DNA of 64,000 nucleotides from Takakia lepidozioides (lineage: Eukaryota; Plantae; Bryophyta). How positions within the stretch are numbered: position 1 is the stretch's first letter; the number at the start of each line of letters is the position of its first letter. The translations under genes and the position numbers were made by a program. The stretch lies in contig CM060732.1 of the NCBI GenBank assembly GCA_030704615.1, positions 66,216,001 to 66,280,000 on the forward strand, given 5' to 3'. Shown here one piece after another: positions 10,172 through 55,057 of this stretch. The notes beneath the pieces are model-generated. The model made no database searches. It was given only the letters and a program-made list of their open reading frames with translations, and was not told the DNA's origin.

Positions 10172-10496
10172 TTCTTGGGTATATAATCTAGAATCGTCTG
10201 GATATAGTGCGAGAAGTCCCTGAGTATTTTTTGGACGAATTAGGTTCGAAGATTTCTATTGTAGATTTGTCTTGTTTCAGGATGATGTACTCAATGGCTC
10301 CTGAGCCTCATTTTCATTAAAGTTTTTTTCTACAACATCTGTAAAATATGATGGATTTCCCATTTCATGTAGAAAGCCTCGTACATACGAACCTCCACTG
10401 TCCAGTGGAGGTTCTTATATCTAGAATGATGGATGCTAGTAAGAGATGCTAGTAAGTTATTTGATTATCTAATGAATTTGTGTTTGGTTGTAACAG

Positions 10497-15278: not shown

Positions 15279-15432
15279 CAGGTTTATCTTAGAAAACAAA
15301 AATTTCTTGACGCTTCCTTGGAACAGATTGAAACGTAGATGACTACTCTAGATTTTCCTAAACCTCGACTGTCCAGTGGACGTTGCTCCCAATATCAATC
15401 TTGTTCTTGGTTTATCTTAATTACTACCTAAG

Positions 15433-27476: not shown

Positions 27477-27925
27477 ACATGCATAATCTGCACTCATTTT
27501 TTCTTAGCGGACAGGGATGTAAATGGTTTGTTGCTGACATGCATAATCTGCACTCATTTTTTCTTAGCGGACAGGGATGTAAATGGTTTGTTGCTGACAT
27601 GCATAATCTGCACTCATTTTTTCTTAGCGGACAGGGATGTAAATGGTTTGTTGCTGACATGCATAATCTGCACTCATTTTTTCTTAGCGGACAGGGATGT
27701 AAATGGTTTGTTGCTGACATGCATAATCTGCACTCATTTTTTCTTAGCGGACAGGGATGTAAATGGTTTGTTGCTGACATGCATAATCTGCACTCATTTT
27801 TTCTTAGCGGACAGGGATGTAAATGGTTTGTTGCTGACATGCATAATCTGCACTCATTTTTTCTTAGCGGACAGGGATGTAAATGGTTTGTTGCTGACAT
27901 GCATAATCTGCACTCATTTTTTCTT
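27477..27925. repeat. Perfect 60-bp tandem array (7 full copies plus a partial copy)
   Basis: Unit ACATGCATAATCTGCACTCATTTTTTCTTAGCGGACAGGGATGTAAATGGTTTGTTGCTG, identical in every full copy. Confidence 0.97.
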
Positions 27926-28099
27926 TGCCGGACATATATAACGGGTTGGCTTTTATAAAAGCCCGCGAGTCCGTGTATAAATAAGGGCAGGTCATGAATT
28001 TAGGTATTTATAAAACATATACTTTTCAAATTACTTAAAAAATATATTCAACATATTTTATTAATAAAAGAACTGAGGAAAAAATAACCTCGGGAAACA

Positions 28100-32495: not shown

Positions 32496-33036
32496 AATCA
32501 AACAGAATAGAAGGCGCTATTAAGATTTAGGGTGATTAAGATTAGGATTTTCATTTGATCAGGTGATACTATACCATGTAGATTATACAAACCACAAGCA
32601 GTCAGTTTCCACACAGGCACCCATGCAGACTTTTGGGTCAATACCAGTGTTGGTCTGGTATCAATATTTTTTGATCCTGGTATATGGGTGGCTCTCAAAA
32701 TGACATACCAGGAGAACATGGGTACCAAGGATATTTTTCAAATTAGATATCAGTCTGGTATGGTTCCTTAGAAAATTATAATCACCTAATCAATGATATC
32801 AATACAAATGTGCTCAAGTAATACCAACTGGTATACATACTGGGATTTGGTATGAAACAAGGCTTCAATTCACTTAAAAAACACTTGATGAGTGCATTGC
32901 TCTTCGTGAGAGCATCATGCACAGCCTTGATGCAAGCCTTGATTGTTCGCCCAACAATCCACCTACCCTAACTGCAAAATGGCCGCACTCTTACCTACTT
33001 CCCATCAACAAGAATTACCACTTGCAACGAGTATCA

Positions 33037-33920: not shown

Positions 33921-34259
33921 CTAGTCGAAAAGGCTGAAACCCATGTCATCATCAGACTCCTCCTTGGCTTCCTCCTCCTTCTTTTCCTCCTTTTCTTCGG
34001 CAGGGGCAGCACCTCCACCTCTACCAGAGGAGGCCACCACAACACCGCCGCCGCCTCGGCCTGGCACAGATGCAAACTTCTCCCTTCCGGAAGCAATCAC
34101 CTCCGTAATATCTTTACCATCCAACTCCTTCAGCAAGAAGGATATTCTTTCGTCATCGCCTTCCGCACCGACTGAACCAAGAATCGATGTAAGATCCTTG
34201 GCAGAGGGAACAGGGTTGCCTCCCAGAACTGCCAACAAGTAGGCAGCAACCACCTTCAT
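33921..34259 (-). CDS. RPP2: 60S acidic ribosomal protein P2 (112 aa, intronless CDS)
   Basis: MKVVAAYLLAVLGGN…EESDDDMGFSLFD. ATG at 34259. AGCCCA/GGCCC site-II-like motifs just upstream (34345-34476). Confidence 0.95.
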   Translation of the reverse strand: MKVVAAYLLAVLGGNPVPSAKDLTSILGSVGAEGDDERISFLLKELDGKDITEVIASGREKFASVPGRGGGGVVVASSGRGGGAAPAEEKEEKKEEEAKEESDDDMGFSLFD

Positions 34260-37200
34260 ATTGCCTGGATACTTAGAGCGGCACACGGCAGCGATGTGGA
34301 CAGAGGTTGAGCTATGGCGGAGTCGATACCTCGCGAGCGAAAGAGAGCCCAATTTCCAGTTTGAAAGTTGATTTCATTTTAGAACAAAAATGAAAAGCAA
34401 AATTGGGGCGGGCCCCAAGCACAAGCAAGCCCGCCTAGGTAGGTCTTGGGGCTGTAAGAAACAAGTGGTAGGCCCGGCGGTCAGGACTGGAGATACTCGT
34501 GTACATACCAGTGTTGGACTGGTATCGTATTTTGAACACACCAGGTTGATACTGGTATATAGGCCTCCGGCCAATTGTGATACTAGGGAGGTACTGGTAT
34601 TGGCAAAAATCTGAGATTTGGATACCATGGTGCTATCAATAAAACCTGAGTGTGGTGGGTACCAATACCAAGAGTTTTTAGAAATCGATACCAGGGTATT
34701 ATCAATACTGGTCTGGTATAAAAAACACTCATGATATGTTGAATATTGAAAGGCCGACTTCTCATAAAAATGTGTACAAGCATGCTTTATTCCTCAAAGT
34801 ATTCCTCAAGTTCCTCAAAGTATTGATACCTAGGTTTTCCTCACAACAATAGTATTAGGAAGCAAATACCAAGCCAATACGGGTATATGCTAGGTAGTGG
34901 CCTGAGGTGATACCAGACTGGTCTGGTACAATGTTGGACCGGTATCATCAACATTTCATACGAGCCAGGGTATGGTATTGTCGGTGAAGAGGCCTCCTTC
35001 ATATCCTGGCAGGTAATGGTATCAAAGTAGGTATTAAGCTTTTAATGTACCAGTCTGGTATGTATATTGCTTTTGCTTGGCCTGGTATGGTATGGTATGG
35101 TATCAGTATTTCAAATTTCAAATCTTATACTGGGGGTGGTATCAATACAGTTATTTATTTATTTATTTTTAAACTGAAAAATAAAAATCTGTCCAAATTA
35201 TACCGCTGAGGTGAGCACTTCAACTGCTGAAGTGATCACCTCATGGGCTGAAGCGCTCACCTCAGTGGCTGAGTGCCACAATTCATACTAACAAGGAGCG
35301 GGATCTCACCTGCTTGGAGCATTGTCTCATTTATCAGCCTGAAATGTGGCTCTTGTAAGGTGTCCTCAAATCACCAGCAGATTTTCGCCAAAATTGCCAT
35401 TCAGATGTCTCAATCAAAGAGCCGCAACTCTCCACGCTGCACCCTAAATCCCTAAATCCTTAACGCTCCACATATTGGGTGCAAGCGACGGTGGTAGACA
35501 TAGTACTGGTATCGACAAAGCTGCGTTCCTTACGATACCAGGCTGGTATGGTAGGAGCCCAGGTATTAGCATTTCACTATATTGCCCCCAATATGTTTAC
35601 CCCGCCTCACCCCCATATACCGGTCCAACACTGGTCTGCCAACACTGGTACATACCGGATCGCAGCTGTGTTACCCGCCCAACACTGGTTGGAACTGGTA
35701 GGAACGGCGGAACCACTTGGCTGGGTTGACTGGACTCAAAAGTGATTTGCAGGCAAGGGTGTTTCACAGCTGTTAACAATATTACGGATGAATAAGGGGG
35801 CGCTTAAACAGTTCGTCATCCTGTTGTATGCAGAACTTGATTGTCAAAAACTGGGGCAAGATGCCCACTTGTCAAGTTAAATAAGCACAGTGTGAAAACA
35901 ACTAGAATAAAGCTAGTTATTTAACACTTGGATTTAGGTCAAGTGTTAAATCAGGTGTCAAGTTTAGTTTGACACCTGAACCGCCTTATCTTCACGAGAG
36001 CGGCAGTCGCGTAGCTCATCTCTCTCGAGTTGAGCCTGCGCGACCGAGCTCCTGCATCGTTTAGGACTGAGTGTGCTTATGATGGGAGTATAGGTTGTTG
36101 TGGGGTGGAGTCCCCATAGCTTGGGGTGCCCCTGGCTCGACTTCTGTTTTAACGAGTGATAGCGATGGATTTCATGTTGTTTCTGGTGTGAACAGTGTGT
36201 CTCTTAGTTTGTTTATCACTCGAGAGAGATGACGCTTGCATCTGTGAGTGCCAGAGGTGAGTTTAGTTTTAGCACTTGTGGGTTTTATTTTAAAAGTGAG
36301 AGAAGCCTATGTGAAAGAAGGTATTACTTCCCGCAACTAAGGTTAACTGGTGCATCGCCCAACACTGAAGGCTGAGCCGATTCAATCCTCACCATGGGGG
36401 CCGGTCCAAGTACTAGCGGCGCCATCTGAAATCACTGAGCGGAGCATAAATGGAAGCATGTATTGGGGCTAGTGAGGTCACCGAGAATAGTAGAGCAGGC
36501 GGTGACGGTGTGCAGAACTGCTACAGTTACGGGGAAGCGTTGTATGAGAGTTACGGTCTAAAAAGACGAGAGGTGGCACTGTTGTTGGTCATTGGACATG
36601 ATATTATGGGGCTAATCAGTATGGACAGGGCCTGTAATAACTTGGTGATGATAAGGCTAGCGAATGGGGGTTTCATACTCAGCTCGATCCAAGTTTGGCT
36701 GCTGACGGTGGACTGCTTCCAGAAGGTCTGATTTTATGATTGATCAAACGACGAGGGCAGTCCGTGCTCCAAGATAGCAGCTCGGTTTCTTCCATTGGTG
36801 CTGGGGTTAAGCATTTATTAGGATTTCGGAGTTTCAAGAAGGACTGGTCGAATTTGGGTAACCGAATTTGGGTAACCAACACATATGTGGGCTGAGGTGG
36901 CCGGAACTGCTTTGTTGATTCTTTCTATGCGATGGCGTATGAAATTAGTAGGCCAACCAACCTCAGTACCGCAGAGAATTGAATTCTCGTTGGAAGACAG
37001 AAGTTTGGTTTAAGCAAAGACCTCGATCTCGGCTCGGCTGGCCTTGATCGCATGGATCGCTCCATGCTCTGTGACGGTGCTAGTTCTTTGGATCTAGGGA
37101 CGTCTCGATAATGGCTTCTGATCTATGATCTTTGGGATTTAGTTCAAGGTTTGTGCCTGCTGGCCATGAAGTTGATTAATTGCTCTGGTAGAGGCAGCCT

Positions 37201-38629
37201 GGCAGGTAATGCAAAAGTGCAACCAATAGCCACCTAGGCTGTCCAGTCGTGGCTAGACACTTTTGACATAGCAGAGTAGGCCGCGGCAAGGGTCTATGAT
37301 TCGGCTGCACATGCCCTGCAGGGAGGTAAGACCAAGACCAACTTCTTCGTGTGACGATCTGAACAATAGTCATAGTTGTACCGTCAGGTCTTGGAGCAGC
37401 CCCAAGAATATAGACTGTTCTACCCTGCAGATTCTCATGCTAAGATTCTCATGCTAGGAATTTCTACTGATCGGAATCTCTACTGATGGTTCACATCTTC
37501 AAAAATAAAAGTGCCCGACTCGTAGTAGGGCCCCTCCCTTGCTGGAGCGGCACAAGTGATATCCTCAGCAGGGCTCATGCACAAGCGGTTGGCACTCACA
37601 CTCGTCAATGCTTCCCTACTCGGTTCCTCTACACATGCAAGATCGTGGACTGAGACAATGAGGTCAAATCGGCTTAGCCAAGAGGGAAACTGGAGACAAG
37701 GATTGGAGGAAAATTATCGTGGTTGCCACCCCAGTGACCCTTGGCAGGTGTTGGGGCATTATCGGATGCTATACTGCCTGCACGGGATATGCCACTTTCT
37801 CACGAAAGCCTTGCAGAGTTGCCCTTCACATTGTGATTATCTGGAATTGGTAGTGGCTGGCGTGGACAACGCCGTGAGGTGGAAACCGAATAGCGAAGGC
37901 AAGTCGCTCTGACTTATTTTGATACTTTTTCCCAAGCTTGCAATTCATGTTTCAACTGCACCCATGCCAGTGACGGCACATTGATATTCACGACGTAGCT
38001 GATCTGGAAGGTACAGAGAACTTGGGAACCTGCAGGGAACGGAGGGCACAATGGATAATATCACTGATATAATTATTCCATGGATCCTGTCCCCAACAGC
38101 TCCGCAATTGAACTCTGTGGCTATGCTGACCTCGAGGAAAAGAGGTTATTTGAAAACATTGGCTCTGATCAGGGTTGTGAATTGGGATAGAATTCTTGAA
38201 GTCAATCGTTGGCCTTCAGTATTATACGATTTGTGAGCAGTGGCCCGACCTGCCTTAATGCCTCCATCGTTAGTGTGGCTTTGGTTTTTGATAGTTGTTG
38301 ACCCCACAAAAACTGTTAGTTAACAGAAAATAATTAAATCAAATCAAATAGGCCTATTGTTAATTAAATGGACAAATAGTATGTTTTTGGGATTAGATTA
38401 ACTTTGGTTGGTCATATCTTTGTAAAAAAAGCTCTGTTTGACGCAGTTTTTGAGGGGATAGCTGTAGAAAGGGGAAATCTACCTATCTAGATCTGGTTTT
38501 TGTTTTTGGGACTCTGCTAAAAATCTATGGAATTTTTAGAGTGTGAATGTGCCATGAAAGATCCACAATCCTGTTTCTAGAACCTGTTCTGGTCTACATG
38601 AGAGATAAATCTGGGGATGTACTCCTTGT

Positions 38630-39376
38630 ATGGCTGGGGGAAATGAGGACGTAATTGAAGGGCAGGTCTCATCTCTTAGCCTGTGCACACAATGGGACAA
38701 GATTTATGTTTCCCAAGGAACTCAGACTGATTTGAGTGGAGAACAGTTGGACGAGTTGATTGCATACTGGGAGTCAGACATTAGCAGTAGACAACAAACT
38801 GTAGTTGGCGTTGAGGGCCTCAATATCGCCTTGGACAGTCAGAACTTTGTTGGAGCCAGCAGTTCTGCAGCTGTAGGTGAAATACCAAAGTGGGTGAAAG
38901 CTAGGCTTGGAACACAGCCAAAGACAGCCCCGGGTACCAAGGTGTTCAGCCACAAGGCCGTGGTGTACTGGAGCAGAGGAGCAAGAGCTACACAAGTGTG
39001 TGCAATCAGACATGGTTGCAGCCGGACACGCTCTACACAAGGCAATCACGAGCGGGGGTTCATTAGCAATGACAAGTTTGTTTTGCTTGAAGGAGATGCA
39101 GTCATCCGCAATGAGGACACCCGCAACCGTCTCAAAGCTTTTGAGTTGAGAGACTATTAGACTCTACCTTTGTTTTCTTTAGTGTTCAGTGAGCGGGAGA
39201 TAGGGGAGTATTGCTTTGTTTCTACCTGGCAGAAAGAGGAGGAGGGTTGGTTAGAGCGAGCTACTGTAGCTTGGGACAAGGTTAGTGGCAGGTTTCTGGA
39301 CATAGATATACCTCCTACACCTTACCATCATGCAGAGCGAGGCACTTTGAGAGAAGTCTGGCAGTTGATAGCATAG
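38630..39376 (+). pseudogene. Extra ORF upstream of gag (~248 codons, one in-frame TAG), unknown function
   Basis: ORFs 38630-39160 and 39170-39376 are in the same frame, separated by a single TAG. No recognisable domain. Confidence 0.5.
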
Positions 39377-39896
39377 ATCAGGATTAGATCTTGCTTGGGC
39401 GGGCTTCTATTCTTCCCCTCCATCTCTGTACTATTTCATTACCTTGTACTCGTAGTTGCCAAAGCCTCTCTTGGTGGAGGCCAGTCAGTCCGGGGTTTTG
39501 GGCTGGGCTATTCTGCAGGATCAGCATTGCAGCTGGATTTTGGTGTGGGGGTGTTGATGTTTTGATTTCTTGTGTTTGGACCCCCCCCCCAACACCTACA
39601 TGCTTGACTGTGCGCCATGTTGGTTTTGTGTGGGCACTTGCTTTCATAGGGATTAGGCCGGATTTGAACACCGGTCAATCCTAGAGTATGCTGTCGGTGG
39701 TGAGGCTAGAGTGATGACCAGCAAGACCACCAGTGTTTCTTCTATGGTGAGGCTGGTTGATGACCAGCCAACCATAGGAGTTCTTGCGGTGGATGCAGGT
39801 GCAGGTGCCCTGAGCCACTGGGATATGACCCTTAAACTGCAACAGGTGCCTACCCGTGTCACTTTTAGAATTAGTAATAGAGCCTTATAGTGTCAC

Positions 39897-41734
39897 GTGG
39901 GGGAGGTGCACATTGTGAGTGTCATCACGGAGTTACCCAGGGGTTCTGAGGGGAGTACGGCTACAGGCAGTAGCAGTGAGAGTGGGTTCACCAGACGAGG
40001 TGTTCGTTTCAGACCACCTTCACCTCCACCCTCAACTAGTGCAGAGTCAGACACAGACTTGGAGGTTTCATCAACAGGTGTGCAGTTTCATTCGCCATTG
40101 TTGTGGGACGACATGGAGGAGATGTATGGAGCTACCAAGGGGCCTCGTAGGTACTCTGGAGCTGTGGGCACAATCGAGTTGGATGACTTTATCCAGGAGT
40201 TCGACAGTTGGTGTGATTTGCAGCAGATGCGCAATCCACAGCTATTCACCCCATTCATGGCGTGGAAGGGACTGTCCAGCATTTGGAAGGCCCGCCTATG
40301 GACGATTACCACGAGTTCAGGCGAGGATATGAAGCAGAGATTGAGGAGTGGAGGATGTATTGGTCACTTGACTACGTCTCCATTACTCGAGGCACGACGC
40401 GACCAGTAGTTGCATCAGTACCAATATCTCCCACTGCCAGCACTAGTAGTGGAACAAGTAGTGCCGGTATTTCTGCAGGTGGTACCAGTTCAAAAGGTGC
40501 TACTACTCCTCCTGCCACGACTACAACACATGTGCCTAGATTCAACCCGGTGGTGGAGTTCTTCCAGGAGTTGCGGAGGAACTACCAAGGTGTACGGACA
40601 GAGAAACTGCGAAGTTTGCAAGACTTCCAGCGCAAACCCAGTGAGAGCTTGCGAGAGGCCTACACTCGTATGAGGCGCTTGATAAGTGTAATCCAAGGGG
40701 TTACTGAAGCTCAAGCAATCCAGTTCTGGTATGGAATTTTGGACAAGGAGCTCAGGAGAAGGGTGCGGGATGCAACCCTGTTACAGGCAGCCCAACCCAC
40801 ATTAGCAGATGTGTTTCTGCTGGCTGAGCGGATTGAGCTCAACATAGTGGAGGAGCGAGTTATTACCATTGGATTTGGCAAAGACATGCCTGCACGAGGC
40901 GCAGCTGCTAGCCCACAGGCACAAGGGACTGCCCAACAGCGTGGTCAGGGGGGCAAGGTTTCCCAACCCAAGTTCCATGGAGCTTACAGGGGACCTCAAG
41001 TGCAGAGGCCAGTAGCATCTTTTGCAAGCCAACAACAACCAAGGGTGGTATGTTGGACATGTGGAGGACCCCATGTCAAAAGAGATTGCCCAGAGAGTGG
41101 CAGAAGGCCGGCACAAGCACAGCCTACACAGTTGCAGTGTGGGCATTGTGGCAAGTATGGGCATGGAGATGCCCAGTGTTATGACTTGCATCCTGAGTTG
41201 CGCCCAGGCCAATTCCAAAGGAACAATGGTGGCCGGGGGCGAGGTGGACCAGCCCAGAGAGGACGAGGTGGTCGGGCACGAGGTGCAGGCCAAGGGCAAG
41301 CTCAACATGGCCAAGGACGCGGTGGTCAGGGTGTTGACCAAGGCATGGCCAACCGGCTTCAGCAGCTAGAGCAGAGGCTCGCTGCAATGGCTATAGCTCA
41401 GGCGGTACCGGCTCCCAGGCGGGATGGTCCACCTCCTGCTCCTGAGGGGGGAGATATGGGAGGCATGGGATTCATGTGCGGAGCAGCACTACCACTAGAG
41501 CAGGTGGAGTCTGCTGCAGCCGTGACTCGAGGAGCATCACGAGTTCCTGAGCCACGAGGTGCACAGGTGGAATTGGATCCAGAACGTGGGGAGGCAAGCC
41601 GTCAGGCGAGGCTTCCTCAGTCATTTATATTGGCGGAAACAGTGTCGACGCCACCATGGCACCTAGTTCTCGCCCGACTGTTACTGAGGCGGAGGTCACT
41701 ATGCCATTGGGGAGAGCTACACGTGCAGCACTGA
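39897..41734 (+). pseudogene. Gag with two Zn knuckles and an RGG/Q-rich region
   Basis: LDDFIQEFDSWC; FQRKPSESLREAYTRMRRL; CWTCGGPHVKRDC; CGHCGKYGHGDAQC. Frameshift at ~40275. Confidence 0.85.
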
Positions 41735-42109
41735 CACCTGCTACCAAAGCTAGTGCAGCCGGTGTGTTGTTGGGGGCAGCCACCTCTGTGTGCCAAGCCC
41801 CACTGTTCTCGGCAACCATGATTGCGACGCCGGGGGTAAGACCAGCTGCAGTGTTCAGACTAGCAACAACACTCTGTGAGAGTGGGGAGGTCATTTCATC
41901 TTCTGCGGAGTTAGTGGAAGGTGTAGTGGCAGAGGGATCCTCGGATTTGAGGATCAACGACTGCCACGGCTGCGCCCTGGCAAGCTGCAGCTGCCAGGTT
42001 GACGGAGCTGCCAGCTAGGCCAGCCTTTGAGCGCGCCATGGTGACACCTGGAGTTGTCTTATTAGACAACCAGGATGACATTTTCTCTTTGAGTGGACCG
42101 GCAGGCAAG

Positions 42110-42430
42110 AAGTACCGGCCACTGCGGGTCTTGTTGGACTCGGGAGCTCAGCCACTGATGTTGGGCAGAGCTGCTATTGCAGGTTTGGGCCTCATGGAGG
42201 CAGATATGGAGCCTTGTCCTTTCTAGATACAGACATCTCTGGGAGGATCAGAGCAGGCTCGGGGCATGACACGGCATCAGTTGGCCATTAGACTGCAGCC
42301 GGATCATCCTATCGATGGCTCAGTGATGCGAGCCAAGGCCATTGTGACAGACGCGGTCACTTACGATGTCCTCGTTGGTGGGGCAATGTTATATCCCATG
42401 GGCTTCACCCTGGACTTTTGGGAGGAGTCA
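42110..42430 (+). pseudogene. Retropepsin-type aspartic protease
   Basis: RVLLDSGAQPLMLG…YDVLVGG, with one TAG at 42224. Confidence 0.85.
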
Positions 42431-42841
42431 GCATCCTACAGGCCTGGATGGCAATCAGGGGATGGTCGTCGTGCACAGCTCCCTGTGACATTCATTGGGG
42501 GTATTGCGGCTGCCCAACGGGGCAAGATGCCAACACTAGCCGCCTTTACAGCTGCAGTTAGTTGGCCTGGAGAGTTGCTGGAAGGCAATGCCCATGCAGA
42601 TGATGTGTCACCTCTAGCAGAGCAGGATGACATGCATGGTATGGCGGAGTTGCCTGCCATGGTTGCTCATACTCCATTGTGGGGTACGAGCAAGGATTTG
42701 CAGCAGGTTGCTGATCGACGGGTGCAACAAGCCTGGGTAGAGGCTTTTGTACCGTCAGGAGAGGAGGAGAGTGCGGGTATTGCACCAGGACCACCTCAGT
42801 TGTCACCATTGGATACCACACTTATTGTGTGGCAGTATCCG

Positions 42842-43785
42842 GATGAAGGCATTTGCCTTCTGGACTTATTTGGCGGGATCAGCACCGGATTGGCTGCTGT
42901 ACTATAGGCAGGTGTGCAGGTAAGGCGTTACCTGTATGTGGAGAGGGATGAGACTGCACGACGCGTCTCACTGCGCCATGTTGCTTAGTTGGTACAGCAG
43001 TACCCTGCTTTGTTGCCAATGTCTGCAGTTCGTGGATACCAACAAGCCTTGCCAACAGACATTTCGTTGCTAGGGGCGCCGGATTTGGAGCAGGTTGGCT
43101 CCATTGATCTGGTAGTGGCAGGTTGGCCCTGCCAAGGGCATTCATCAGCCGGGCATGGCAATGGATTGCGAGACTCGAGGACGGGTCTGTTTTGGGAGAT
43201 GGTGCGGATTTTGCGCCACTTGTAGCTTCATCAAGTTCTATCGCCAGCATACATCTTGGAGAATGTGCCACTGATGGGCGATTCTCGGGCCAGGGTGATG
43301 GCCAGTGTGCATCAAGTCCGGTCGTGGCTTGGTCAGCAGTGTTGCTGGATGCAGCTGCAGTGGGATCACGGGCTCATCGTCCACGGCTATGGTGGACTAA
43401 CTTGATGCCACCCGCACTGCTCAAGCGTGCATTTGATGGGGTGCAGCGGCCAACACACCTCATAGTGGACAGCATTTTGGACAGAGGGAGGCAGTCTCAA
43501 CGTGTGAGACACGATGACCGTTCGCCTTTGGTAGTGGTCAACAGGGTGGGTCAACCACGAGCAGCATTACCTACACTGCTCAGCTTCCCAGGATCCCATG
43601 CTTTTCGGGATGGTGGACCTGGCCTCCTGTGGGATGCTCAGTTGCAACAGTTAGTGGAGCCTAATGTCGACGAGCGAGAGTGGGCTATGGGGTTTTCCAC
43701 TGGGACCACGGCGGTGCCTTCTCTTTCTGAGGCATCACGTCGTCAGGTGTTGGGGCAAGCAATGGATCTCAATTGCTTGACCTAG
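42842..43785 (+). pseudogene. C5-cytosine DNA methyltransferase domain (DNMT3-like, non-permuted) embedded in pol
   Basis: Motif I LDLFGGISTG (42859), II YVERD, IV DLVVAGWPCQG (43121), LFWEMVRIL, VI YILENV (43259), VIII AHRPRLWWTN, IX EREWAMGF, X RRQVLGQAM. Three TAG stops and one -1 frameshift at ~43333. Confidence 0.92.
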
Positions 43786-44149
43786 ATTATCAGCTTGGCT
43801 ATGGCTGAGCAACGTAGAGTGCGGAGTACACTTCCCTTGACGGTCTCTCTGCCTACCGAGACGGTACAGGCAGTGAGTGGGGGCGAGCCGGTGAGGACCA
43901 CAGGGTATAGACATCCATGGCACACGTGGGAGGTGCTCGAGGTCCAGAGGGAGTTGGCAGCCAAGGCAGCTGTGATGGATGAGGTTGGGGATTCTTCTCG
44001 GGTTGAGGAGGTTCTCAATGATGAGATGATGGGGCAGGATGAGGCCTTGTCATTGACTGAGCAGGAAGGGAGTACTGCTCAAGAGGTTGCAGCATAGCAA
44101 CCACGGGACGCGTCCTCTACCTCTAAGCCCACTGGACTTAAGGTTGCAG

Positions 44150-45260
44150 TTACGGAGGACAATTGGGAGCCTGACATTGGACCCATTGTTACCGGAAGAG
44201 AGAGACGACGTATGTGGCGGTTCCTGAGGGCTTACAAGAATTGCTTTGCCTTCAGTTTGAAGGACTTGGGAGCACTGAAGGGTCAAAAGATTCGCATTGA
44301 ATTGGCTACTGACACGCCAATCTTTCGGAGACCCTATAGATACAATGACATGGAGCGGTCCTTGATTCAGATGAGAACTCAGGATCTTTGGGAGGCAGGC
44401 TTGGTAGAGCTCTCTGGTGGAGAGTATGCTTCAGCCACAGTGATGCCAGCCAAGAAGGATGTCTACCAAGAAGGATGTCTATGGCAATTGGACGGAGAGA
44501 CGTATGTGCGGTGATTACCGGCCTGTAAATCGTCAGACCAAGTCCGATATGTATGCCATGCCGACACCAGAGGAGATCTTTGATGCCATTGGGCATTCCA
44601 AGGTCTTTAGCACGTTGGATTTACGATCCGGATATCACCAGTTGCCGATCAAGGAGGCGGATAAGCAAAAGACGGCATTCTGGGGGATCAATGAGCACGG
44701 GAAAGATTGCCTATACCAGTGGCGGTTCTTACCATTTGGGCTTAAAAACGCTCCTGCTGAGTTTCAAAGGGTCATGGACAGGATTCTAGCAAGGGTGGAG
44801 TTTGCTCGGTGCTACATAGATGACATCATCATCTTTAGTGCTACGGTGGAGGAGCATGAGAGACACCTTCAGGGGGTATTTGAGCGCTTGAGGACGCACG
44901 GATTGAAGTTACATCCGGGAAAGTGCAAGTTTTTCCACAACCAGATTGAGTATCTGGGTCACATGATATATCCTGAAGGATTGGGGGTACATCAGACTAA
45001 GGTAGAGTCCATTGCACAAGTTCCACGCCCCACGGATGTGAGCCGAGTTCGAGCTTTCATGGGGTTAGCAAACTATTACAGACGGTTTGTTAAGGGATTT
45101 AGTGCCATTGCAAAGGCTCTAACCAAGCTGACCAAGGTGGACCAGGAATGGCAGTGGGAAGATGAGCAAGAACAAGCTTTTCAAGAGCTCAAGGCGAGGT
45201 TGACCTCGGCGCCCATCTTGAGACGACCTATTAGGGGCGTCCTTTTCAGCTGCATACAGA
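44150..45260 (+). pseudogene. Reverse transcriptase of the DNMT-bearing Gypsy
   Basis: RMCGDYRPVN, FSTLDLRSGYHQ, LPFGLKNAP and YIDD (44813). A 16-bp tandem duplication at 44450-44481 causes a frameshift. Confidence 0.95.
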
Positions 45261-45267
45261 TTGGAGC

Positions 45268-47247
45268 ATGCTGGGGCTTGGAGCGGTGCTCACACAGGTG
45301 GATGATGAGGGAAGAGAGTTCGTAGTGGCTTATGCTAGCCGCTCGAACAATGCTGCAGAGTCTAAGTATAGCTCATATGAGGGAGAATGCTTAGCTGCAG
45401 TGTGGGTCGTGGCACACTTCAGGTGCTATCTATACGGCAATCTCTTCACCCTTATCACGGATCACCAACCACTCAAGTGGTTGATGGAGTCAGACAAGCT
45501 TACGGGGAAGCTTGCACGGTGGGCACTCATCCTTCAAGAGTATGACTTTCAGGTGGTGCATCGACCGGGTTTGGTCAATCGCAATGCAAATGGGTTGAGT
45601 CGCAATCCATGCACGAGCCAGCAGGATGACACTGGAGCTCGGTGGCATGGTGAGACGGACGAGGAGATGGTGCCCGGATGGCATGCATCTGCATTTCTGT
45701 GTATCTTGGCAGCGGAAGGCCAGGTTGGACCTGCAACAGGGATGACTGTACATCAAGTGTCTAAGGACCCTGAGGCCAGCAATGAGCAAGGTGGCGCCAA
45801 AGATATACATGAGGATTCAGTTGTGTTGGACTACCTCCGCACTAGAGACAATGCAGCCACTGTGACTGCCAAAGAGAGGGATCGGATCCTACAACGAGCC
45901 AAGAGGTTCAAGTGGGAGGGGACACACCTGCTCCGAGTGTGGGAGGATGGTCGAGTGAGGATTGTGCCTCACCCAACACAGCGGGCACGGTTAGTGCGAC
46001 ATGCCCATGATGAGTTGGGGCATTTTGGGGTGCGACGCACTCATAGTCTACTACAGGGGCAGTATTGGTGGCGTGGTATGCACACAGAGGTGCAACAATT
46101 TGTGGCTAGGTGCATGGTGTGTGACAGGGTGCGTGCTTCATTCAACGCCCCTACTCCACAATTGCACCCTCTTCCGATCATGGGATTGGGCTACAAGTGG
46201 AGTCTTGACTTCGCAGGGCCGTTGCCACTGACCATGCGTCACAACAAGTACGTGTTGGTGATGGTGGAGCATTTTTCCAAGTGGATTGAGTTGGTTCCAT
46301 TGCCTGATAAGGCTAGTGAGGGAGCTGCATATGCATTCTTGGATTGTGTGCTTAGCCGATTCGGTGCTCCAGCTGAGGTACTCACGGACCAAGGGAGAGA
46401 GTTCTTGGGGGAGTTTCAGGCTTTGTGTGACAAGGCCTTGATAGACCACCGCACCACTTCTCGGGATCATCCTGAGGCCGATGGCTTGGCAGAGAGAGTT
46501 GTTCAGACAGTAAAGAGGGGTTTGCGCAAGTATGGCTTGCAGAAGGGACACCTAGGAGATTGGGACCTTCAATTACCCTGGTTAGCCATGGGCTACAGGT
46601 TCAGCAAGCAAGCATCACTTGCCTCCTTCTCACCATACTTTCTTCTCTTTGACCGAGAGCCGGATTTGCCTACATCCATTCGCAGAGAAGCTGCTACAGT
46701 TCTTAACCTTGACGATCCGGACGTGTGGGCACGTGCATGTGAGCAACGTGCAGAGTTGTTCAAGAAAGTCATGCCCATGGCTTTCGAGAACCTTGCCATT
46801 GCACAACACCGTGATACGTTGAGGTATGCGCCCATACGTGATGGGGGCTATCGTCCTGGGGTTCGGAGATTCAACCCTGGTGACTATGTCTATCTACAGC
46901 AGATTGCTCCTACGACTTTGGATGTGACTGCAGGACGTGTTATTTTGAGGGTTCGAGAGGTCTTGCCCTCAGGCGTCTTGGTCTTGGAGGGTCGGGATGG
47001 CATAACTTGGAAGGACCATGTGCGTAATTGTGCGCCATGTCACCTTCCGAATGTCGATGGCAGGATAGACCCAAACTTGGCAGTGGTATCTGCAGGTTTG
47101 AGGTGCATGTTGTGTGGGTCTGTTAGAGGGGCAGCCACCATGCTGGTGTGTGATCGATGCTCTAGGGGTTGGCATATGGGATGCTTGACTCCACCTCTTG
47201 AGATGGTTCCGGATGGGGATTGGTTATGTCCACATTGCATTGGATAG
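45268..47247 (+). CDS. RNase H + integrase (HHCC, DDE) + C-terminal PHD finger
   Basis: VAYASR…TDHQPLKW; HDELGH…CMVC; SLDFAG, TDQGREF, GLAER; C4HC3 CMLC…CDRCSRGWHMGC…WLCPHC at 47104-47238. Confidence 0.95.
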   Translation: MLGLGAVLTQVDDEGREFVVAYASRSNNAAESKYSSYEGECLAAVWVVAHFRCYLYGNLFTLITDHQPLKWLMESDKLTGKLARWALILQEYDFQVVHRPGLVNRNANGLSRNPCTSQQDDTGARWHGETDEEMVPGWHASAFLCILAAEGQVGPATGMTVHQVSKDPEASNEQGGAKDIHEDSVVLDYLRTRDNAATVTAKERDRILQRAKRFKWEGTHLLRVWEDGRVRIVPHPTQRARLVRHAHDELGHFGVRRTHSLLQGQYWWRGMHTEVQQFVARCMVCDRVRASFNAPTPQLHPLPIMGLGYKWSLDFAGPLPLTMRHNKYVLVMVEHFSKWIELVPLPDKASEGAAYAFLDCVLSRFGAPAEVLTDQGREFLGEFQALCDKALIDHRTTSRDHPEADGLAERVVQTVKRGLRKYGLQKGHLGDWDLQLPWLAMGYRFSKQASLASFSPYFLLFDREPDLPTSIRREAATVLNLDDPDVWARACEQRAELFKKVMPMAFENLAIAQHRDTLRYAPIRDGGYRPGVRRFNPGDYVYLQQIAPTTLDVTAGRVILRVREVLPSGVLVLEGRDGITWKDHVRNCAPCHLPNVDGRIDPNLAVVSAGLRCMLCGSVRGAATMLVCDRCSRGWHMGCLTPPLEMVPDGDWLCPHCIG

Positions 47248-48278
47248 TGGGAGTGGATACAACCATGGAAGGCTAACAAGAAACGCAAGGCCCAGCTACT
47301 AGGAGACCTTGAACATACAAGGTCCTGGCTCAAGTTCACAGATTGCAAGACGGCGACTAACGATGGGGCTACTTTTGTACCCGGCTTCTTGGTCTATAGG
47401 GTTTTAGTGCAATAGGGACAGTGATAGAGGACTTAGTACAGCTGTGGCTATTACATCTTGTAGCTATCTAGAGGTAGAGAGACCTATCCACCAGTTAGGG
47501 GGACGATTGTGGCAGACTACTTTATTGTGCATATATGTGTGATGTGGTTTGGGCAGCGATGTAATTATGTAGCAATATGTATGCGCACGACACACTTGTC
47601 CAGAGTTTGTGAGTTACTGTCTGCAATTCTTGTGTCTGATGCTCCATATCATTAGTTTTGCACATTTGCATAACATCAAAACTGAAGAGCATCATCTGTG
47701 ACTAGAAACTTCAGAATAGTTTGCCACAAACAAGTGAAGTTTGCTCCAGGGTTCTGTCTGCCTGTAACTAATCAGCACATCATGATTTATGAAATCAGCT
47801 TGGTATCTTCAGCAGACATCCCATAGCTGAAGCTGATGCATCAGTAACAACAATATACATCAGCTAGCCTCCAGCCACAGGTGGGCACGAGATACAAGAT
47901 GGCCAGATTGTGAACTGGAAGTGGACATGACAACAGAGTCAACCGTTACATTAACAAACTCAGAAACCCAGTAACCTTTCAATGCAGACCTCCAAGGGTT
48001 TCAGTATAAATTGAGATAAGCATTATCCTGAAAAGTATTGCATAGTCCGGATATTGGAACAAAACTTGAAGTGAGTGCTATAAACTCATCATCCACATGC
48101 AATCGTCCGACCAAGACTCCAAATCTCCCGGGCAGCTGTCCTTCCCTCTTTCTACACGCGCTAGTTGTCACGGACAGCTATCCCAGGCAGGTGTCATTTG
48201 TAATCAAGTAATTGAGGTCCCTCATAATCCAGCTCTTAGCAATGGTTAAGAACTAGAATCAATCGTCACCATCTCCAT

Positions 48279-51200
48279 TTACATGGTCATACCTGGCACT
48301 TGGGGAACCAGGGGTGCCTTCTTCTTGGCCTTTTCTACAACTATAGCTTGCGTTGTGAGCACCATTCCTGCAACCGAGGCAGCATTCTGAAGGGCACATC
48401 TGGTTACCTTAGCAGGGTCAATAACCCCTGACCGCAGGAGATTCTCATATCGATCTTCCATGGCATTGTACCCAATCTCCCACTCGTTCTCCAAAATCTT
48501 CTCCACTACTACCGCACCTTCCACACCTGCATTATTTGCTATTAAAGCTGTTGGCGACAGTAGAGCCTGCATCCATTACACCCACAGTTAGGATGATAGG
48601 CACACACCGTCTGTCTGATTCTTCAATGAACATTGATCAAAGCCTCTTGACACAACTGACCTATTGTGCACACACACAGGGCATCACGTCCAATATGAGT
48701 ACTGAACTTGACACATCAAATCAATTGAGTTTACACGAGAGGTGTCATTAAGTTGTTACTTTCTGTACAATGTCAGCTCCCAGCTTCTCTTCAGCATCCT
48801 GAATAGTCTCCTTGATTGCGGGTACACATGACGACAGGTGCACCAATGCAGCACCTCCACCTGGCACAATACCCTCCTCAATAGCAGCAAATGTAGCATT
48901 CTTGGCATCTTCTATTCTCAGCTTTCGATCCTCCAGTTCAGTCTCTGTTGCAGCTCCAACCTGCACCGCAGCAACATCATGACTTGTTACCTAGCATAAT
49001 CAGTCTTTGAAAAAATTGTCATGATGAGTGAAACTTCTAGCTGTCTCATGCAGAACAATGGAGACATGCATCCCAGAATGACAGACACTGGAAATATATT
49101 GAGACCCGATAAAGTACAGCCAGTACAGCCAACTGATCCGCAACACAAAAACAGACATGTGCTATTTCAACTCTTTGACCCTATGGGCGGCCTACATATA
49201 CCAGTATATATGCAGGCAAAGGACTTGGAAGACACAGCAAACAGTTGCCAACACATCCCAACACCCTGGGCGTTTTACATAGCCTCACATCTCTCCTGTC
49301 CATATCTACAAGAATTCCTACCTTGATTACAGCAACTCCTCCTGACAGCTTGGCGATGCGCTCAGACAACTTTTCAGTATCATAGACAGAATCGGTCTCA
49401 GTCAGCTCTTTCTTGATCTGAGCAATTCGAGCCTGGATTTCATCCTTGGTAGCCATGTCTGCAATGATGGTGGTGGAGCTGTTGGTGATGGTCACTTTTC
49501 TAGCAATCCCTAGCTGGTCCACTGTTGTGTTCTCTGTCTTCAAGCCCAAGTCATTGGCAATGAACTCAGCACCTACAACCATCCAAAGGGACAATTAGCT
49601 CACATTCACCTGCACATTGACACAATTAGCTCGACAATTTATCCATCGCTGCAGGAGTCAAGCCCATCAATAGTAACAGGGACAACTGTGGAACTGTAAA
49701 CTAGCATGAAATTAAGCCGTGGAAACAAAGCACCTGTAAGGATAGCAATATCCTGGAGAAGGGCCTTGCGGCGCTTGCCGAACCCAGGGGCCTTGATGGC
49801 AGCCACTTGCAGTACTCCCCGCAGTTTGTTCACAACCAGTGTAGCCAGTGCCTCACCAGACACATCCTCAGCAACGATGAGAAGGGGTGCTTTCAGCTCT
49901 GTAGTTTTCTCAAGCACTGGGATGATATCTTTGATGGTTGTGATCTTCTGGTCAGTGACCAACACCTTCACATTCTCAAACTCTACTACCAGCTTCTCCT
50001 GGTTTGTCACAAATTGAGGTGAAATGTAACCCCTGTCAATCTGCAACAAGTATTGCAATATGTCAGTATCATTTGCTGCTACACACACCTCTACTTAGCA
50101 GTTTCTTGACACAGGTTGCGCTGAGCATGATAAATAGGCTAAGTGTCATCATCAGCTCCAGCAGCAATTACTCCGTTAAGCATCCCAAGACCAATATCAA
50201 ACGGGTATGTCCAGCTCAATATTGAAGTTATTGGAACCAACCAAGAACTTTTGCTGAGCCTCATCCATATTTTGGGAGAGTGAAAAACATTGAAGTGGTG
50301 CTTACCTCCATTCCCTCCTCGACCTGAACTGTAGTCTCGAAAGAAGAGGACAACTCGATTGATAGAACACCATCAGGTCCAACCTTGTCAATAGCATCCG
50401 CTATCATGGTGCCCACAAACTCATCATTTCCAGCAGAGATTGATGCCACAGCTGCACAAGCAAATGGCCTGTTTCAGATGCTACTTGTAGATCTTCAGAA
50501 GCACCACAACGCCAGAATAGCAGCTCCTACTATGGTCAAAATATTTGTAATTCTTACTTGTGTGACTAGCAGTCAACCTCTAAACACTGACTGAGTTTGT
50601 CGGGCCAGTACCCAATACTGGTGGACATCTTTTGGCCATCCAACTAGCCTAACACTATCTCTTTACTAAAAAACCACCCTGAAAAAAACCCAGAGCGACG
50701 GACAGATGCCTTCCCCATGCATGTCATTTAAATGGTCAATGCAGGGCTATAAAACTAAAATCATTAACTCTGTAACCAACTTGTCAAGTTTGCATGCGGA
50801 CAAGTGCCTCTGTCAGTGCCTTAATGGCAGTTAACAAAAATAAGTTTATACCTGCACCTGAGCTGTGCAGATAAGCTAAACCCCGGTGGGGTCGATAGCC
50901 AATGTTCACAGGGAACAGCATGAGTACATTCTTACCTAACAAACCAGGCTAGGCGCCAGATATGTGGGTTTTTGGCCCAGTTCCAAAACCATGGCATGGG
51001 CAGGACATGCCTAATGGCATTTGCAAATTCCATCATTTTAAAAAACTTGGCTAATGGAACCCCAGACAGGGTCGTTCGGTCAACACTATGAAGATACATA
51101 TAGGTGAACACGACTTCAGGAATATGTGGCGTCTACTTCACCTGTGCCACAGATATTGCAGGACATACAAGCTGCCCAAAATGTAACCCTAATGTGCACA

Positions 51201-53942
51201 CTAATATTCTGTGCAGCCCTGACATCCTTAAGTGCAAAAGCAACAGCACATGCTTGTCCCTTACAATGGTCAAGGTCAAAACTGTCACCTAATGTGCCAC
51301 GCTAGTGTTGTTTGCAGCCCTGACACCCTTGAGTGCGAAAGTAGTGGCACGGTGACTTTGATCAACACTACACATCAGTAACTTCCCTCTCCCTTTACAC
51401 TGGTCGATGTAACCTTTCCCCAACTGTCTTCGCTCTTTCCATAATCCCCCTTGAGTAGTTGGCCAGCTTTTGAATGAATACCTTTAATATCCTCCCGGCC
51501 TTGTACAGGCCGAGATTTCCTCTTCAACTCCTCAATGAGGCCTGCGACAGTCTTATCCATTCCCTTCTTCACTGCTACAGGGTTGGCCCCTGAGGTGACA
51601 TTCAGAAGCCCCAGCATTATAAGTTCTCTTGCTAGGACACAGGCTGTGGTTGTCCCATCACCTGCAGAGTCATTTGTCTTGCTGGCCACCTGTATGTGTC
51701 CATCATTTAGAGAATGGCACGAAGTCCTGACACCTTAATTGACACCCTAACACCCTAACACCTTAATTGACTCCTACATGTGACAACTCACCTATTAGGG
51801 CTTCTGTAGGGTTGTGTCAAAGAGTCTCCCACCTTCAAGGGGAAGGAGTTTCCTCAGAAATTTACAGACTGCAGGAAATGTTAAGAAAGTCCATAGGGAA
51901 TGCATGAAATGAATGCCTCATGAGTTAAGTTATCACTAGCAAAATTGAGGCTGTACACTGACTGCTGGTCCACATCCCAAGCACATGCTTGAATGAAAAG
52001 CTTGATCTTGAACTCAGTGTCTTGTCCTTACAAAGGGGACTGATCAGCATGTGCATTATCGAAGGTGGCCAAAAACATCATACAGGTCATGAAATAAAGC
52101 ACATTGCTACATCTAGGAGCTTCCAAAGAAACAGCTCACCTCTCGAATGAGAGATGCCCCGGCATTCTCCATGGCATCAGGCAAATCAATAGCACGGGCG
52201 ATTGTGACACCGTCATTGATCACTTTGGGTGCACCAAACTCATCCAGCACCACATTGCGACCTGAACCCACCAGCTACGCTTTAGTTGTGTACCCCTCAA
52301 ACATATGGCTGGGTAGCCACTGGAATACCACGTCTTCGCGAAAACTTGACTTGATCCTGAAACCCTTCTTAGACCCTCACACCAGCATGACCAATCACAT
52401 TACAGGCCACATGAACAACTCAACGAGCGTACTATAATGACGTCCAACAAAATCATCAGCTTGGAGGCTGGGAGCAAAAGCAAGAACATGCCTCCAAACA
52501 ACCATGACTGACTCCCTCTAACAGACTCAGAAGTAACTGCAAAGATATGCAGCAGAACCCACAAAAATTCTTTACCCAAAACCCCAGCAGTATGACTCCC
52601 TATGCACTGCAGCAAGATTCCTGCTTCAGTGATTTATAATAGCTTCTCTGTACATGTCAGTTTCCCACACTAATCGATCAGTATCTATTTACATCAACAA
52701 CTGAGTGAAAAATAGCAGCATCTACCCCAAATCCCAGGCTTTTGTACCAAGATTAGACATCATTTGTACTCGGATGGCCGCATATCCACACTACAAAACA
52801 CAATAGCGTACCTCGAGGACCCAGTGTGACACCAACAGCATCTGCCAATTTGTCAATTCCTGCTTGAAGAGATTCACGCGACTTCTGGTCAAAAGCAATT
52901 TCCTTGGCATTAGCTCTCACCAAAACTCTTCCTTTGTTTCCTCTATGTCCAGCTACCTGGCTGAGCACCCGGCCTGGATGCGGATTTTGTTCTTGCCAGA
53001 ACCCTGCCACACTCCTGCCTGACTTCAGCTGCATCAATATCCATCCACACGAAAGTATGAGATGAGACTGCACCCATGATCTACAAAGATATTGTCTGGT
53101 AACAGTGTTAACTGCAAAACCATATATAGAAACATGCCAGTATCATGTTGATGTGGTATGAAACTGCAGTCCACGGAGGGGACCAACCTAACCCAACAGG
53201 CAAACGAGGTGTCAAACATGCAAAAACCATTATAACTGCAGCTCAGAGAAGGTAAAATGTGTGCTTGCATGAGGCAGTGGCACTCAAGTCTTCAGGACTT
53301 TTGAATCTCTAGAATCCATACTGTAATAGAGCCAAAACAAACTCAGAATACCGGACCTGCACAAACCAGTTGCGACCTACCATTTCACCACATACACAAA
53401 ATTCTGAACAATTCTCAGGAATACAGCCTTCCATACATTTGGACCATTGAGCGGATAGAAATCCACCCTGATCCAGATAACCCCCTTGTAAACTGATATT
53501 TCATGGAGAGAGTTGTAAGGAGATGAAGGATAAGGATGTTTCTGGCAATTACAATGCCATTTCTAACATAGGTACTACAAAGACAAAATATCCAGAAAAC
53601 ATGAATGTGCCATTCAGACTTCCGGATCCTTCGTTCTCAGAAATGAGTATCAAATGAGGCATGCTCGTTTAATGGCATCACAAGGGGCGGGGGGGGTCCA
53701 GTGCACGATCTCCATACTAAAGAAAGATACAATCGACCGAATGCTTTGCCCCTAAACCTTCTTTCAACACAATGTACCCAACAAATGCTAAAACAGTGTG
53801 CATAAACACTGTAGAACGACAACTAAGAAACAGGCTCACACAGAACCAAGAAACTCACGGATGATGAAGAAGCCCCGCACGAAGGCACAGCGAGCGATGG
53901 AGAAGCCAGGGCTCCATTCGCCAACATTGCATCGGCCGCCAT
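48279..53942 (-). CDS. CPN60A: Chloroplast chaperonin 60 alpha subunit, 9 exons, ~607 aa
   Basis: Exons 53942-53859, 53028-52812, 52261-52140, 51689-51482, 50451-50306, 50040-49734, 49572-49322, 48960-48760 and 48566-48279, all GT-AG and phase-consistent. Motifs [38 protein letters not shown] and GIVPGGG. N-terminal transit peptide. Confidence 0.96.
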
Positions 53943-55057
53943 AACTTCCACTCAACCGCTGCTTCGAACTCTACAGCTCAGCGATCCGTGGCGAGAAACA
54001 GAAACTCAGGCAATCAGAACGTACCCAAATCGACTCTCACAAGACCATCCTCCTCCCAAGGTCAATCAAAACTTCACCCGCAAGTTCTCGCGGATTCTAT
54101 ACTCGAACAACGATAAAACAGAGGCGAAGAGGAATCTCTCGAAGTCTCAGGACGCCTCTGCACATACACATACATGCATCCATCATGTATGCCAACCATG
54201 CAAACGAAGCTCCTAGAACTCTGCCTTATCTCCAAAGCTTCTACAAAAAAAGTGAGTGAAAGTGCGCCGAACCCGGCCTGTCTTTATTTTTTCTTGCTGT
54301 GGATCCATCTAGAACGTGTTTCCGATTCCACGGCACGACATGAAATTCTCTCTGACCATGGCTTTTTCGTGTTGAGTGTAGTAGGTACGTGATGGAAGAA
54401 CCCCATGCTGATGAGTGGGAAAGAAACGGCAAGCCAAAAATATATAGAGATCTCGTTTTGGTTTAGCTAGCGCCAAAACCTTGCAGATTAGGCCCCACAC
54501 ATACAGGGAAAGAATAGTCTCGTATCAAAAACACACGCCATCAGTCAGCAGATCGATAGGTGCCTCAATCAAACTCGTGTGTGGGATCACTATGTTCACC
54601 ATCGGAAGAGGAATTGATGTTCTCAATCTCTAGACAGTACTTACTGAATCCACCTTTGGAAGAGAAGTGCTACTATCAAACTGGAGAGTCCTGAATTCAG
54701 ATATTCGTCAACAATCTTTAGACAGCAGAGGATTGAGAAAGAAACAGCTGCCCTGATCAGCCCTAGTACTTATTGGCTTTTGCACAAGGGAGTCTGTGAA
54801 GTTCGTAGTTGAGGATGTTCTCTAACATAGCACAAATGCTTGCTTCTGTCATTCCATCACTGTTCAGACAACGAAAGAGCCCATTCCTCCATTCTTTACT
54901 GAATTTTTACTGCTATCACCAATACAGTACTGCAATGTCAAGTTTTAATTTGAGCATACAGATCAGGCCCCAATGTGGAGTTCTTCAAACACACCTGACA
55001 GAATTGAGATAGTAGGTGGATCTTTGTGGAGCAACTTTTGATATACAAACAAAGTGG

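Follow-up and report, generated by a model that had tools for sequence, protein, structure and literature searches.

A land-plant variant of the KnitGypsy-Dnmt3 retroelement design, with a DNMT3-like domain and permuted end repeats, in the genome of a likely moss

The window, which is the whole stretch of DNA that was analysed (64,000 nucleotides), contains a dead, decayed copy of a Gypsy-type retroelement, which is a land-plant variant of the KnitGypsy-Dnmt3 design of the alga Klebsormidium nitens. In the reading that we consider fairly probable, elements of this family encode Gag, protease and a DNMT3-like cytosine methyltransferase in one open reading frame (ORF1), closed by a stop codon that is likely read through; their end repeats are permuted, they likely integrate as circular cDNA, and the methyltransferase would methylate that cDNA. 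DNMT-carrying retrotransposons are thereby extended from one alga to land plants, including the model Marchantia, where methylation mutants and published gene models allow a direct test of the question asked in 2018, what a captured DNMT does. From the anatomy one would expect expression at Gag level through a stop that leaks, reverse transcription that primes itself, and a DDE integrase that inserts a permuted-LTR circle; the last of these would, if true, be unusual among elements of the LTR type.

Anatomy of the element

The features of the window copy are collected in Table 1.

Table 1. Features of the retroelement, in positions of the window
Feature	Position	Strand	Remarks
Left target-site duplication (TSD), CACT	35866-35869	+	same 4 bases at 47593-47596
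Whole element	35870-47592	+	11,723 bp; TG...CA; form A...PPT-B
Repeat A	35870-36218	+	putative 3' portion of U3, then R-U5, in a permuted LTR; last bases ...TATCA
Predicted self-primer, Tf1-like	36016-36029	+	pairs with primer-binding position 36219-36232
Primer-binding position, directly 3' of A	36219-36232	+	not complementary to a tRNA 3' CCA end
Extra ORF	38630-39376	+	about 248 codons, one internal TAG; 5' region of the element
gag, frameshifted	39891-41734	+	two CCHC-type knuckles (41051, 41138)
Aspartic protease (PR; DSG)	42032-42472	+	one TAG at 42224; weak Pfam match
DNMT3-like C5 cytosine methyltransferase domain, broken in this copy	42842-43812	+	motifs; Pfam and PDB matches; model of a relative
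In-frame stop TAG, then CAA CCA (CAR-YYA leaky-stop context); end of ORF1	44095-44103	+	
Reverse transcriptase (RT)	44164-45229	+	YIDD at 44813; frameshifted near 44470
RNase H (RH)	45235-45600	+	RT_RNaseH, E 2e-35
Integrase (IN)	45910-46650	+	Integrase_H2C2 and rve; HHCC finger and D-D(35)E core intact
PHD finger, C-terminus of integrase	47104-47244	+	PHD, E 6.8e-10
Polypurine tract (PPT)	47497-47506	+	same place before B1 in relatives
Repeat B	47507-47592	+	putative 5' part of U3; ends ...CGACA
Right target-site duplication, CACT	47593-47596	+	equals left copy

The order gag-PR-DNMT-RT-RH-IN-PHD, proposed by the initial annotation of this DNA, was borne out by Pfam domain matches. The match of gag was below the cut-off (Retrotrans_gag, E 0.0012), and its product is homologous to the Marchantia protein P0008; the RT matched RVT_1 (E 1.6e-33) and, best among PDB entries, the Ty3 RT (E 1e-51). 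The top PDB matches of the PHD finger were CHD4, PHF12, KDM5B/5A, ATXR5 and PHF21A; the ligand of the PHD fingers of CHD4, PHF12, KDM5 (PHD1), ATXR5 and PHF21A is, we assume, the unmethylated H3K4 tail.

The extra ORF is common to many copies in the window's organism, as seen from a high summed depth over 38508-39509. It had no tblastn match in the 80 metagenome loci described below (L001-L080) and no Pfam match, and its top score in the ESM Atlas was just 0.83. Summed contig depth, which is not a copy number, amounted to 3.7e5-1.3e6 over 38508-47525 versus about 100 over the Cpn60 gene (run X1); on this basis, the family is clearly very abundant in the window's organism. A low-copy segment of about 1.5-2 kb within the element (36504-38006), with a summed depth of about 300-400 versus 1e5-1e6, is probably an insertion or a captured piece present in a few copies.

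The methyltransferase domain

The initial annotation described an intronless C5 methyltransferase with motifs in canonical, non-permuted order, and all of the motifs that it listed were found between 42863 and 43767: I (DLFGG, 42863-42877), II (YLYVERD, 42929-42949), III/IV (IDLVVAGWPCQ, 43103-43135), VI (ENV, 43259-43267), VIII (AHRPRLWWTN, 43372-43401), IX (EREWAMGF, 43672-43695) and X (RRQVLGQAMD, 43738-43767). The proposed HMM check gave a match to Pfam DNA_methylase with E=1e-12 and 48.6 bits (cut-off 22). The N-terminal half of the domain shares its frame with the protease motif LLDSGAQ (42131), as had been stated.

The assignment to DNMT3 rather than DRM was upheld both by sequence and by fold. 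Human DNMT3A/3B were the top PDB matches of the window domain, above DRM and M.HhaI (E 1.7e-6, single sequence), and again the best matches of a DNMT profile (E 4e-18). L037, a relative in which the domain is uninterrupted, was modelled by AlphaFold (pLDDT 82.5, pTM 0.86), and Foldseek matched the model to DNMT3A/3B with E 2.5e-17 and TM 0.66/0.75. A circularly permuted, DRM-type enzyme was ruled out by the canonical motif order and by DRM scores lower than those of DNMT3A/B.

The window copy of the domain is broken by TAG stops at 42905, 42986, 43223 and 43783 and by a frameshift near 43330-43338, and the motif-IX arginine kept in relatives is a tryptophan.

Relatives, selection and trees

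A search with the N-terminal half of the DNMT domain returned 43 proteins, the top ones 72-77% identical, those named coming from Marchantia polymorpha, Calypogeia fissa and Sphagnum troendelagicum; the proteins of these three genera are 65-77% identical to the window DNMT. In a metagenome scan, 123 of 151 candidates were confirmed and 80 loci were kept (L001-L080). They include repeated assemblies of the same insertions and belong mainly to one subfamily, so that counts over them are not independent. All 80 carry the DNMT domain, between protease and RT wherever the contig spans both neighbours; a one-off insertion, which the initial annotation had named as the contrary outcome, is thus refuted by the family data.

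The search for stop-free copies covered 64 full-length DNMT domains, the window included: 38 were without a frameshift and 2 without a stop, and most copies are therefore old. The uninterrupted relatives are L004, L037 and Marchantia P0008, in which the SAM-binding, PCQ, ENV and RxR motifs are intact. The catalytic cysteine, the ENV glutamate, the motif VIII arginine and SAM motifs I and X are kept in bryophyte, Klebsormidium and Scenedesmus-type elements.

Between subfamilies, where pS is 0.64-0.85 (near saturation) and DNMT pN 0.19-0.37, dN/dS was about 0.07-0.21 for DNMT, where computable, versus about 0.05-0.07 for RT. These ratios indicate purifying selection on the DNMT between subfamilies, contrary to the second outcome envisaged against the annotated proposal. 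Ratios within the main subfamily were 0.4-0.9, as expected from decay after insertion.

A profile search with the DNMT domain gave 426 clusters (50% identity) at E<=1e-30. Two architectures were found among the best 150 of the 426. The first, PR-DNMT-RT-RH-IN, includes the K. nitens protein GAQ93235.1 (P0293) and two Closterium proteins; the second, RT-RH-DNMT-IN-PHD, has one named member among the 30 proteins looked up, from Scenedesmus sp. PABB004. In a large set of Gypsy polyproteins, P0196, P0207, P0212 and P0253 among them, the same DNMT follows RNase H and precedes integrase; most of these have a PHD finger at the C-terminus, and some have a G-patch. In many algal relatives, and in many of this large set, motif IV reads GWECQ, not GWPCQ, and part of the family may therefore have altered catalysis.

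The DNMT and RT trees that the initial annotation had called for were computed by FastTree from 44 elements (DNMT and RT-RH); each requires one change of domain position, and the two agree. In a quick, unrooted DNMT tree of 38 rows, the Klebsormidium and Closterium domains grouped with the bryophyte ones (SH-aLRT 96), 24 PR-DNMT elements, including P0293, making up one side of that branch. The data point to an element lineage much older in green plants than an acquisition in the K. nitens lineage. Viral contigs contained only phage-type C5 methyltransferases, 23-45% identical over short stretches.

The stop codon between DNMT and RT

In the window, TAG at 44095 stands in frame between DNMT and RT. 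Among 58 aligned main-subfamily metagenome loci, a stop was found at this junction in 57 (35 TAG, 22 TAA, and TAC in the remaining one) and CAA next to it in 57, while the highest stop frequency in the 697 other aligned columns was 18/54. Divergent lineages have it too: the window and L037 read TAG CAA CCA, L053 TAA CAA TCA and L064 TAG TAG CCA. As the loci are mostly of one subfamily and include repeated assemblies, about five independent lineages lie behind the stop. ORF1, that is Gag-PR-DNMT, ends at this conserved stop about 65-110 residues past motif X, and the public Marchantia and Calypogeia ORF1 proteins end 90-94 residues past it. The DNMT is thus placed at the end of the Gag-PR ORF and not inside pol, as first annotated, and would be made at the level of Gag. 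Divergent relatives P0174, P0179 and P0202 have a single ORF of 2138-2240 residues.

CAR YYA after UAG is the read-through signal of TMV and works after UAA too (PMC2754532, as far as its available text goes). The main-subfamily context, CAA CCC, has 5 of the 6 consensus bases. From its conservation and context, the stop is likely read through into RT-RNase H-integrase-PHD. An AUG is located three codons past the stop in 56 of the 58 main-subfamily loci, and L053 and L064 also have one nearby, which makes reinitiation or a separate mRNA a live rival to read-through.

End repeats, priming and target duplication

The canonical Ty3/Gypsy features TG...CA ends, TSD and PPT are all present in the window element. 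The annotated term "LTR retrotransposon" has to be amended, since the repeats are split and permuted and do not form an LTR pair: no long repeat was found around the window element, and an ordinary paired-LTR element is excluded, as no two full direct LTRs flank the internal region. Among relatives with long flanks, the full layout, A...PPT-B-A-B, is seen in L032, L053/54, L055 and L062 and parts of it in L004, L023 and L038; others have A...PPT-B. Contigs from runs of the window's organism contain both joints, B-to-A (47592 to 35869/35872) and A-to-B (36210/36213 to 47506), and in these runs repeat A has a high summed depth (35502-36503). The window has a perfect 4-bp TSD, as do 6 of the 9 loci where both ends are seen; the remaining 3 agree at 3 of the 4 bases. 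The B|A junction reads CA-GC-TG in 3 of 6 loci, CA-GC-TA in 1 and CA-AC-TG in 2, and the A|B junction is exact in all 5 loci where it is seen whole.

The predicted self-primer and the primer-binding position form 14 contiguous Watson-Crick pairs in the window, and the minimum-free-energy structure computed for 36005-36245 (z -5.55) also has the self-primer paired. A complement of at least 8 contiguous pairs was found in 10 of 23 main-subfamily loci, in 9 of them at the same place; the other 13, which are decayed, failed the contiguous-pair test. In L053 the complement has 11 pairs, and the pairing is kept by three different sequences. Priming by tRNA was rejected in favour of self-priming, because the primer site has no TGG start and no tRNA gene was found in the 64-kb window.

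Since A is followed by a self-priming site and B is preceded by a PPT, the two together, as B+A, would make up the true LTR, which is permuted. Its opening at the CA-NN-TG junction makes integration from a circle likely, to judge from the sequences of the ends. Two pieces, L044:13282-13570 and L045:5531-5819, contain a partial A with the primer site behind it, then what is left of a PPT, and B; they lie beside inverted pieces and resemble a tiny, internally deleted derivative.

Proposed mechanism and alternative readings

In the mechanism that we favour, a minority of ribosomes would pass the UAG/UAA-CAA stop, and the output of DNMT would roughly equal that of Gag (about 1:1). Once the protease had released it, far more DNMT than RT and integrase would be packaged. 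Reverse transcription would be self-primed after A, with the plus strand started from the PPT before B, the structures for both being visible in the element. Linear cDNA would run B-A...B-A, and its ends would join, giving rise to the fixed A|B junction. The DDE integrase would then cut the internal palindromic B|A site, CA-GC-TG, on both strands, and the resulting CA-3' ends would insert with a 4-bp duplication. A two-repeat circle would yield A...B-A-B; a one-repeat circle, or a later B-B deletion, would yield A...B, the form seen in the window. As the weakest steps, the DNMT would carry out de novo methylation of the new cDNA, with CG as the most likely target, and the cDNA would thus bear marks like those of host DNA on entering the genome; the PHD finger would steer integration via histone H3 tails.

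The job of the DNMT is the least certain part of this mechanism. Methylation of cDNA in the particle fits the place and the amount of the domain and the activity of SymbioDIRS-Dnmt3. In old copies, C-to-T differences occur at 18% of CG, 21% of CHG and 4.5% of CHH sites, a pattern that is the mark of host silencing, and the heavy CG/CHG decay implies that any camouflage is not lasting.

It is unlikely, by our estimate, that the same element keeps its DNMT for a non-catalytic or RNA-directed job, for example to bind RNA or cDNA inside the particle or to bring in chromatin factors of the host. Abundance at the Gag level would suit such a role, and an enzyme seldom needs capsid-level amounts; the GWECQ variant of many algal relatives and the decay that copies suffer at CG/CHG anyway point the same way, as does the negative yeast assay of the Klebsormidium domain, called "inconclusive" by its authors (PMC5890265, section 10). 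Against it stand the residues kept from bryophyte to Scenedesmus-type elements (catalytic Cys, ENV Glu, motif VIII Arg, SAM motifs I and X), and the closest fold is that of DNMT3A/B, which acts on DNA, not that of DNMT2.

The circle step meets a difficulty of its own. If the circle is symmetric, A-B-A...B and A...B-A-B should be equally frequent; B before A was found at 0 of 21 visible 5' ends and B-A at the 3' end in 6 loci, which argues against the simple version. Faster collapse of A-B-A could explain the absence of the mirror form, and so could a DIRS-like (Ngaro/PAT) route, which we rate slightly less probable still than a non-catalytic DNMT: the transcript would carry A...B-A-B, A|B would be inherited and only a new B|A cut, with RT-RH-IN perhaps made by reinitiation at an AUG. 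Besides the missing A-B-A...B form, this route would account for the exactness of A|B wherever it is whole (5/5), reinitiation would agree with the AUG that 3 of the 5 lineages have no more than 5 codons from the stop, and a likeness of the repeats to DIRS is noted in the legend of Fig. 4c in de Mendoza et al. 2018 (PMC5890265). The self-priming site right after A and the PPT right before B are, on the other hand, where a conventional LTR (B+A) has them, and the DDE integrase and 4-bp TSD, with no tyrosine recombinase in the scanned ORFs of the window element, speak against it; as for reinitiation, the window and L037 have no nearby AUG, yet keep CAA CCA.

That a host DNMT3 retrocopy was captured once, as a passenger, into the window copy or a recent subfamily would agree with a DNMT3-like sequence that is broken here, and is very improbable in view of the 426 clusters retrieved at E<=1e-30 by the domain profile, the same position in Marchantia, Calypogeia, Sphagnum, Closterium and Klebsormidium, purifying selection and congruent trees.

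The mechanism favoured above can be widened to a Gypsy lineage spread over all green plants, in which the circle is opened at CA-NN-TG by the DDE integrase, an active DNMT present at capsid level methylates the cDNA before insertion, and the domain was captured a single time, before the chlorophyte/streptophyte split, and then moved between two polyprotein positions. We advance this wider version only tentatively and think it rather doubtful as a whole.

Relation to known systems

KnitGypsy-Dnmt3 was described by de Mendoza et al. 2018 (PMC5890265) from K. nitens only, with a Dnmt3-related domain, Gypsy domains and DIRS-like repeats, and was read by these authors as an acquisition in the K. 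nitens lineage; the main text names neither Marchantia nor PHD. In its section 10, SymbioDIRS-Dnmt3 domains produced de novo CG methylation in yeast, and KnitGypsy-Dnmt3 produced none, a result which the authors regarded as "inconclusive". As far as that description goes, the elements reported here share with KnitGypsy-Dnmt3 the intronless, non-permuted Dnmt3-related domain, the Gypsy set of PR, RT, RH and DDE IN, purifying selection, and the DIRS-like A/B repeats (full in L032, L053/54, L055 and L062, A...B in the window). The K. nitens protein GAQ93235.1, with the order gag-knuckle-PR-DNMT, groups with them. They differ in their hosts, which are land plants (liverworts, Sphagnum and the likely moss of the window), in their very high abundance, and in the conserved stop that splits DNMT from RT in the same frame, whereas the 2018 authors place DNMT, RT and RNase H in one ORF. 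As DNMT is not in one uninterrupted ORF with RT and RNase H, the window element was filed as a variant and not as a plain member. The text of PMC5890265 does not describe, for KnitGypsy-Dnmt3, self-priming, a TSD, the CA-NN-TG junction or a PHD.

Like the Tf1/Sushi-type and Tcn1 Ty3/Gypsy elements, the window element has a primer position complementary to its own 5' region and not to a tRNA (PMC6317226, in the text available), and it also has a Ty3-like RT. It differs from the Tf1/Tcn1 chromoviruses by the absence of paired LTRs, by a PHD finger in place of the chromodomain after the integrase, and by the DNMT domain. The REXdb survey required two LTRs (LTR-FINDER) and could not have caught such elements; neither PHD nor methyltransferase is mentioned in the available text (PMC6317226). 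Without paired LTRs, these elements are missed by standard surveys, though apparently very abundant in the window's organism.

The layout A1...B1-A2-B2 is that of the split-direct-repeat elements of the DIRS order (Ngaro/PAT). Elements of this order (Ngaro/PAT, SymbioDIRS) integrate via a tyrosine recombinase, unlike the window element with its intact D-D(35)E integrase and 4-bp TSD. A DIRS recombinase element was ruled out on these grounds and for lack of a recombinase in the scanned ORFs. In IS3/IS911, DDE transposases cut abutted ends with a short spacer on a circle, which is inserted with a TSD; these are bacterial DNA transposons with no RNA step, and the likeness is a mechanistic analogy only.

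Host plant DNMT3 of bryophytes has the same non-permuted, DNMT3-type catalytic domain, and is a heterochromatin enzyme, unlike the element's domain, which is intronless, fused to Gag-PR and part of a mobile element. The host enzyme PpDNMT3b performs de novo CG and CHH methylation, according to the text available of PMC6453930, which by analogy suggests likely contexts for the element DNMT.

In the open-access literature, most subscription papers being outside its scope, nothing was found on land-plant members of this family, on its stop codon or on the cleavage of a circle, and 'KnitGypsy' was found only in PMC5890265. DNMT3 in retrotransposons of 'streptophytes and dinoflagellates' is mentioned in the available text of PMC12344493, only by citing the 2018 paper.

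Host and other features of the window

The genes on either side are RPP2, Cpn60-alpha and an mTERF. Of 544 positions in the Cpn60 exons, 471 are identical to Sphagnum balticum, and a quick one-gene tree places Cpn60 within mosses (SH-aLRT 83) as sister to Sphagnum (91), in agreement with the embryophyte host presumed by the initial annotation; in the mTERF tree the window sequence is on a long branch. By these gene sequences, the host is likely a moss and probably not Sphagnum itself. An intronless ORF at 33921-34259 (-) presumably encodes the 60S acidic ribosomal protein P2, as named from its sequence. The CpG observed/expected ratio in 48001-54000 is 0.28-0.50 over Cpn60-alpha, lower than over the retroelement (about 0.45-0.56), and hints at gene-body methylation in the host.

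Long ORFs of 328, 168, 413, 124 and 265 aa are clustered at 10494-16159 (+); the cluster ends in a NIF-type phosphatase domain (PF03031, E 2.9e-9), the other ORFs having no Pfam match, and may be a further large mobile element. Between 6023 and 16437 there are recurrent short palindromic repeats (AACCTCCACTG...CAGTGGAGGTT). A DUF7869 domain (E 3.5e-35) is found at 4136-4945 (-), near TTTAGGG-rich, telomere-like repeats at 2393-3088. Remnants of an unrelated Gypsy element (protease, RT-like) lie at 19655-22282 (+), and those of a LINE (endonuclease PF03372, RT-like pieces) at 28946-32526 (-). At 30920-32077 there is a MITE- or foldback-like element with long terminal inverted repeats of CAATTCAATTGAATTG units (arms of 87 nt, 97%), and a perfect tandem array of about 9 copies of a 60-bp unit occupies 27417-27988.
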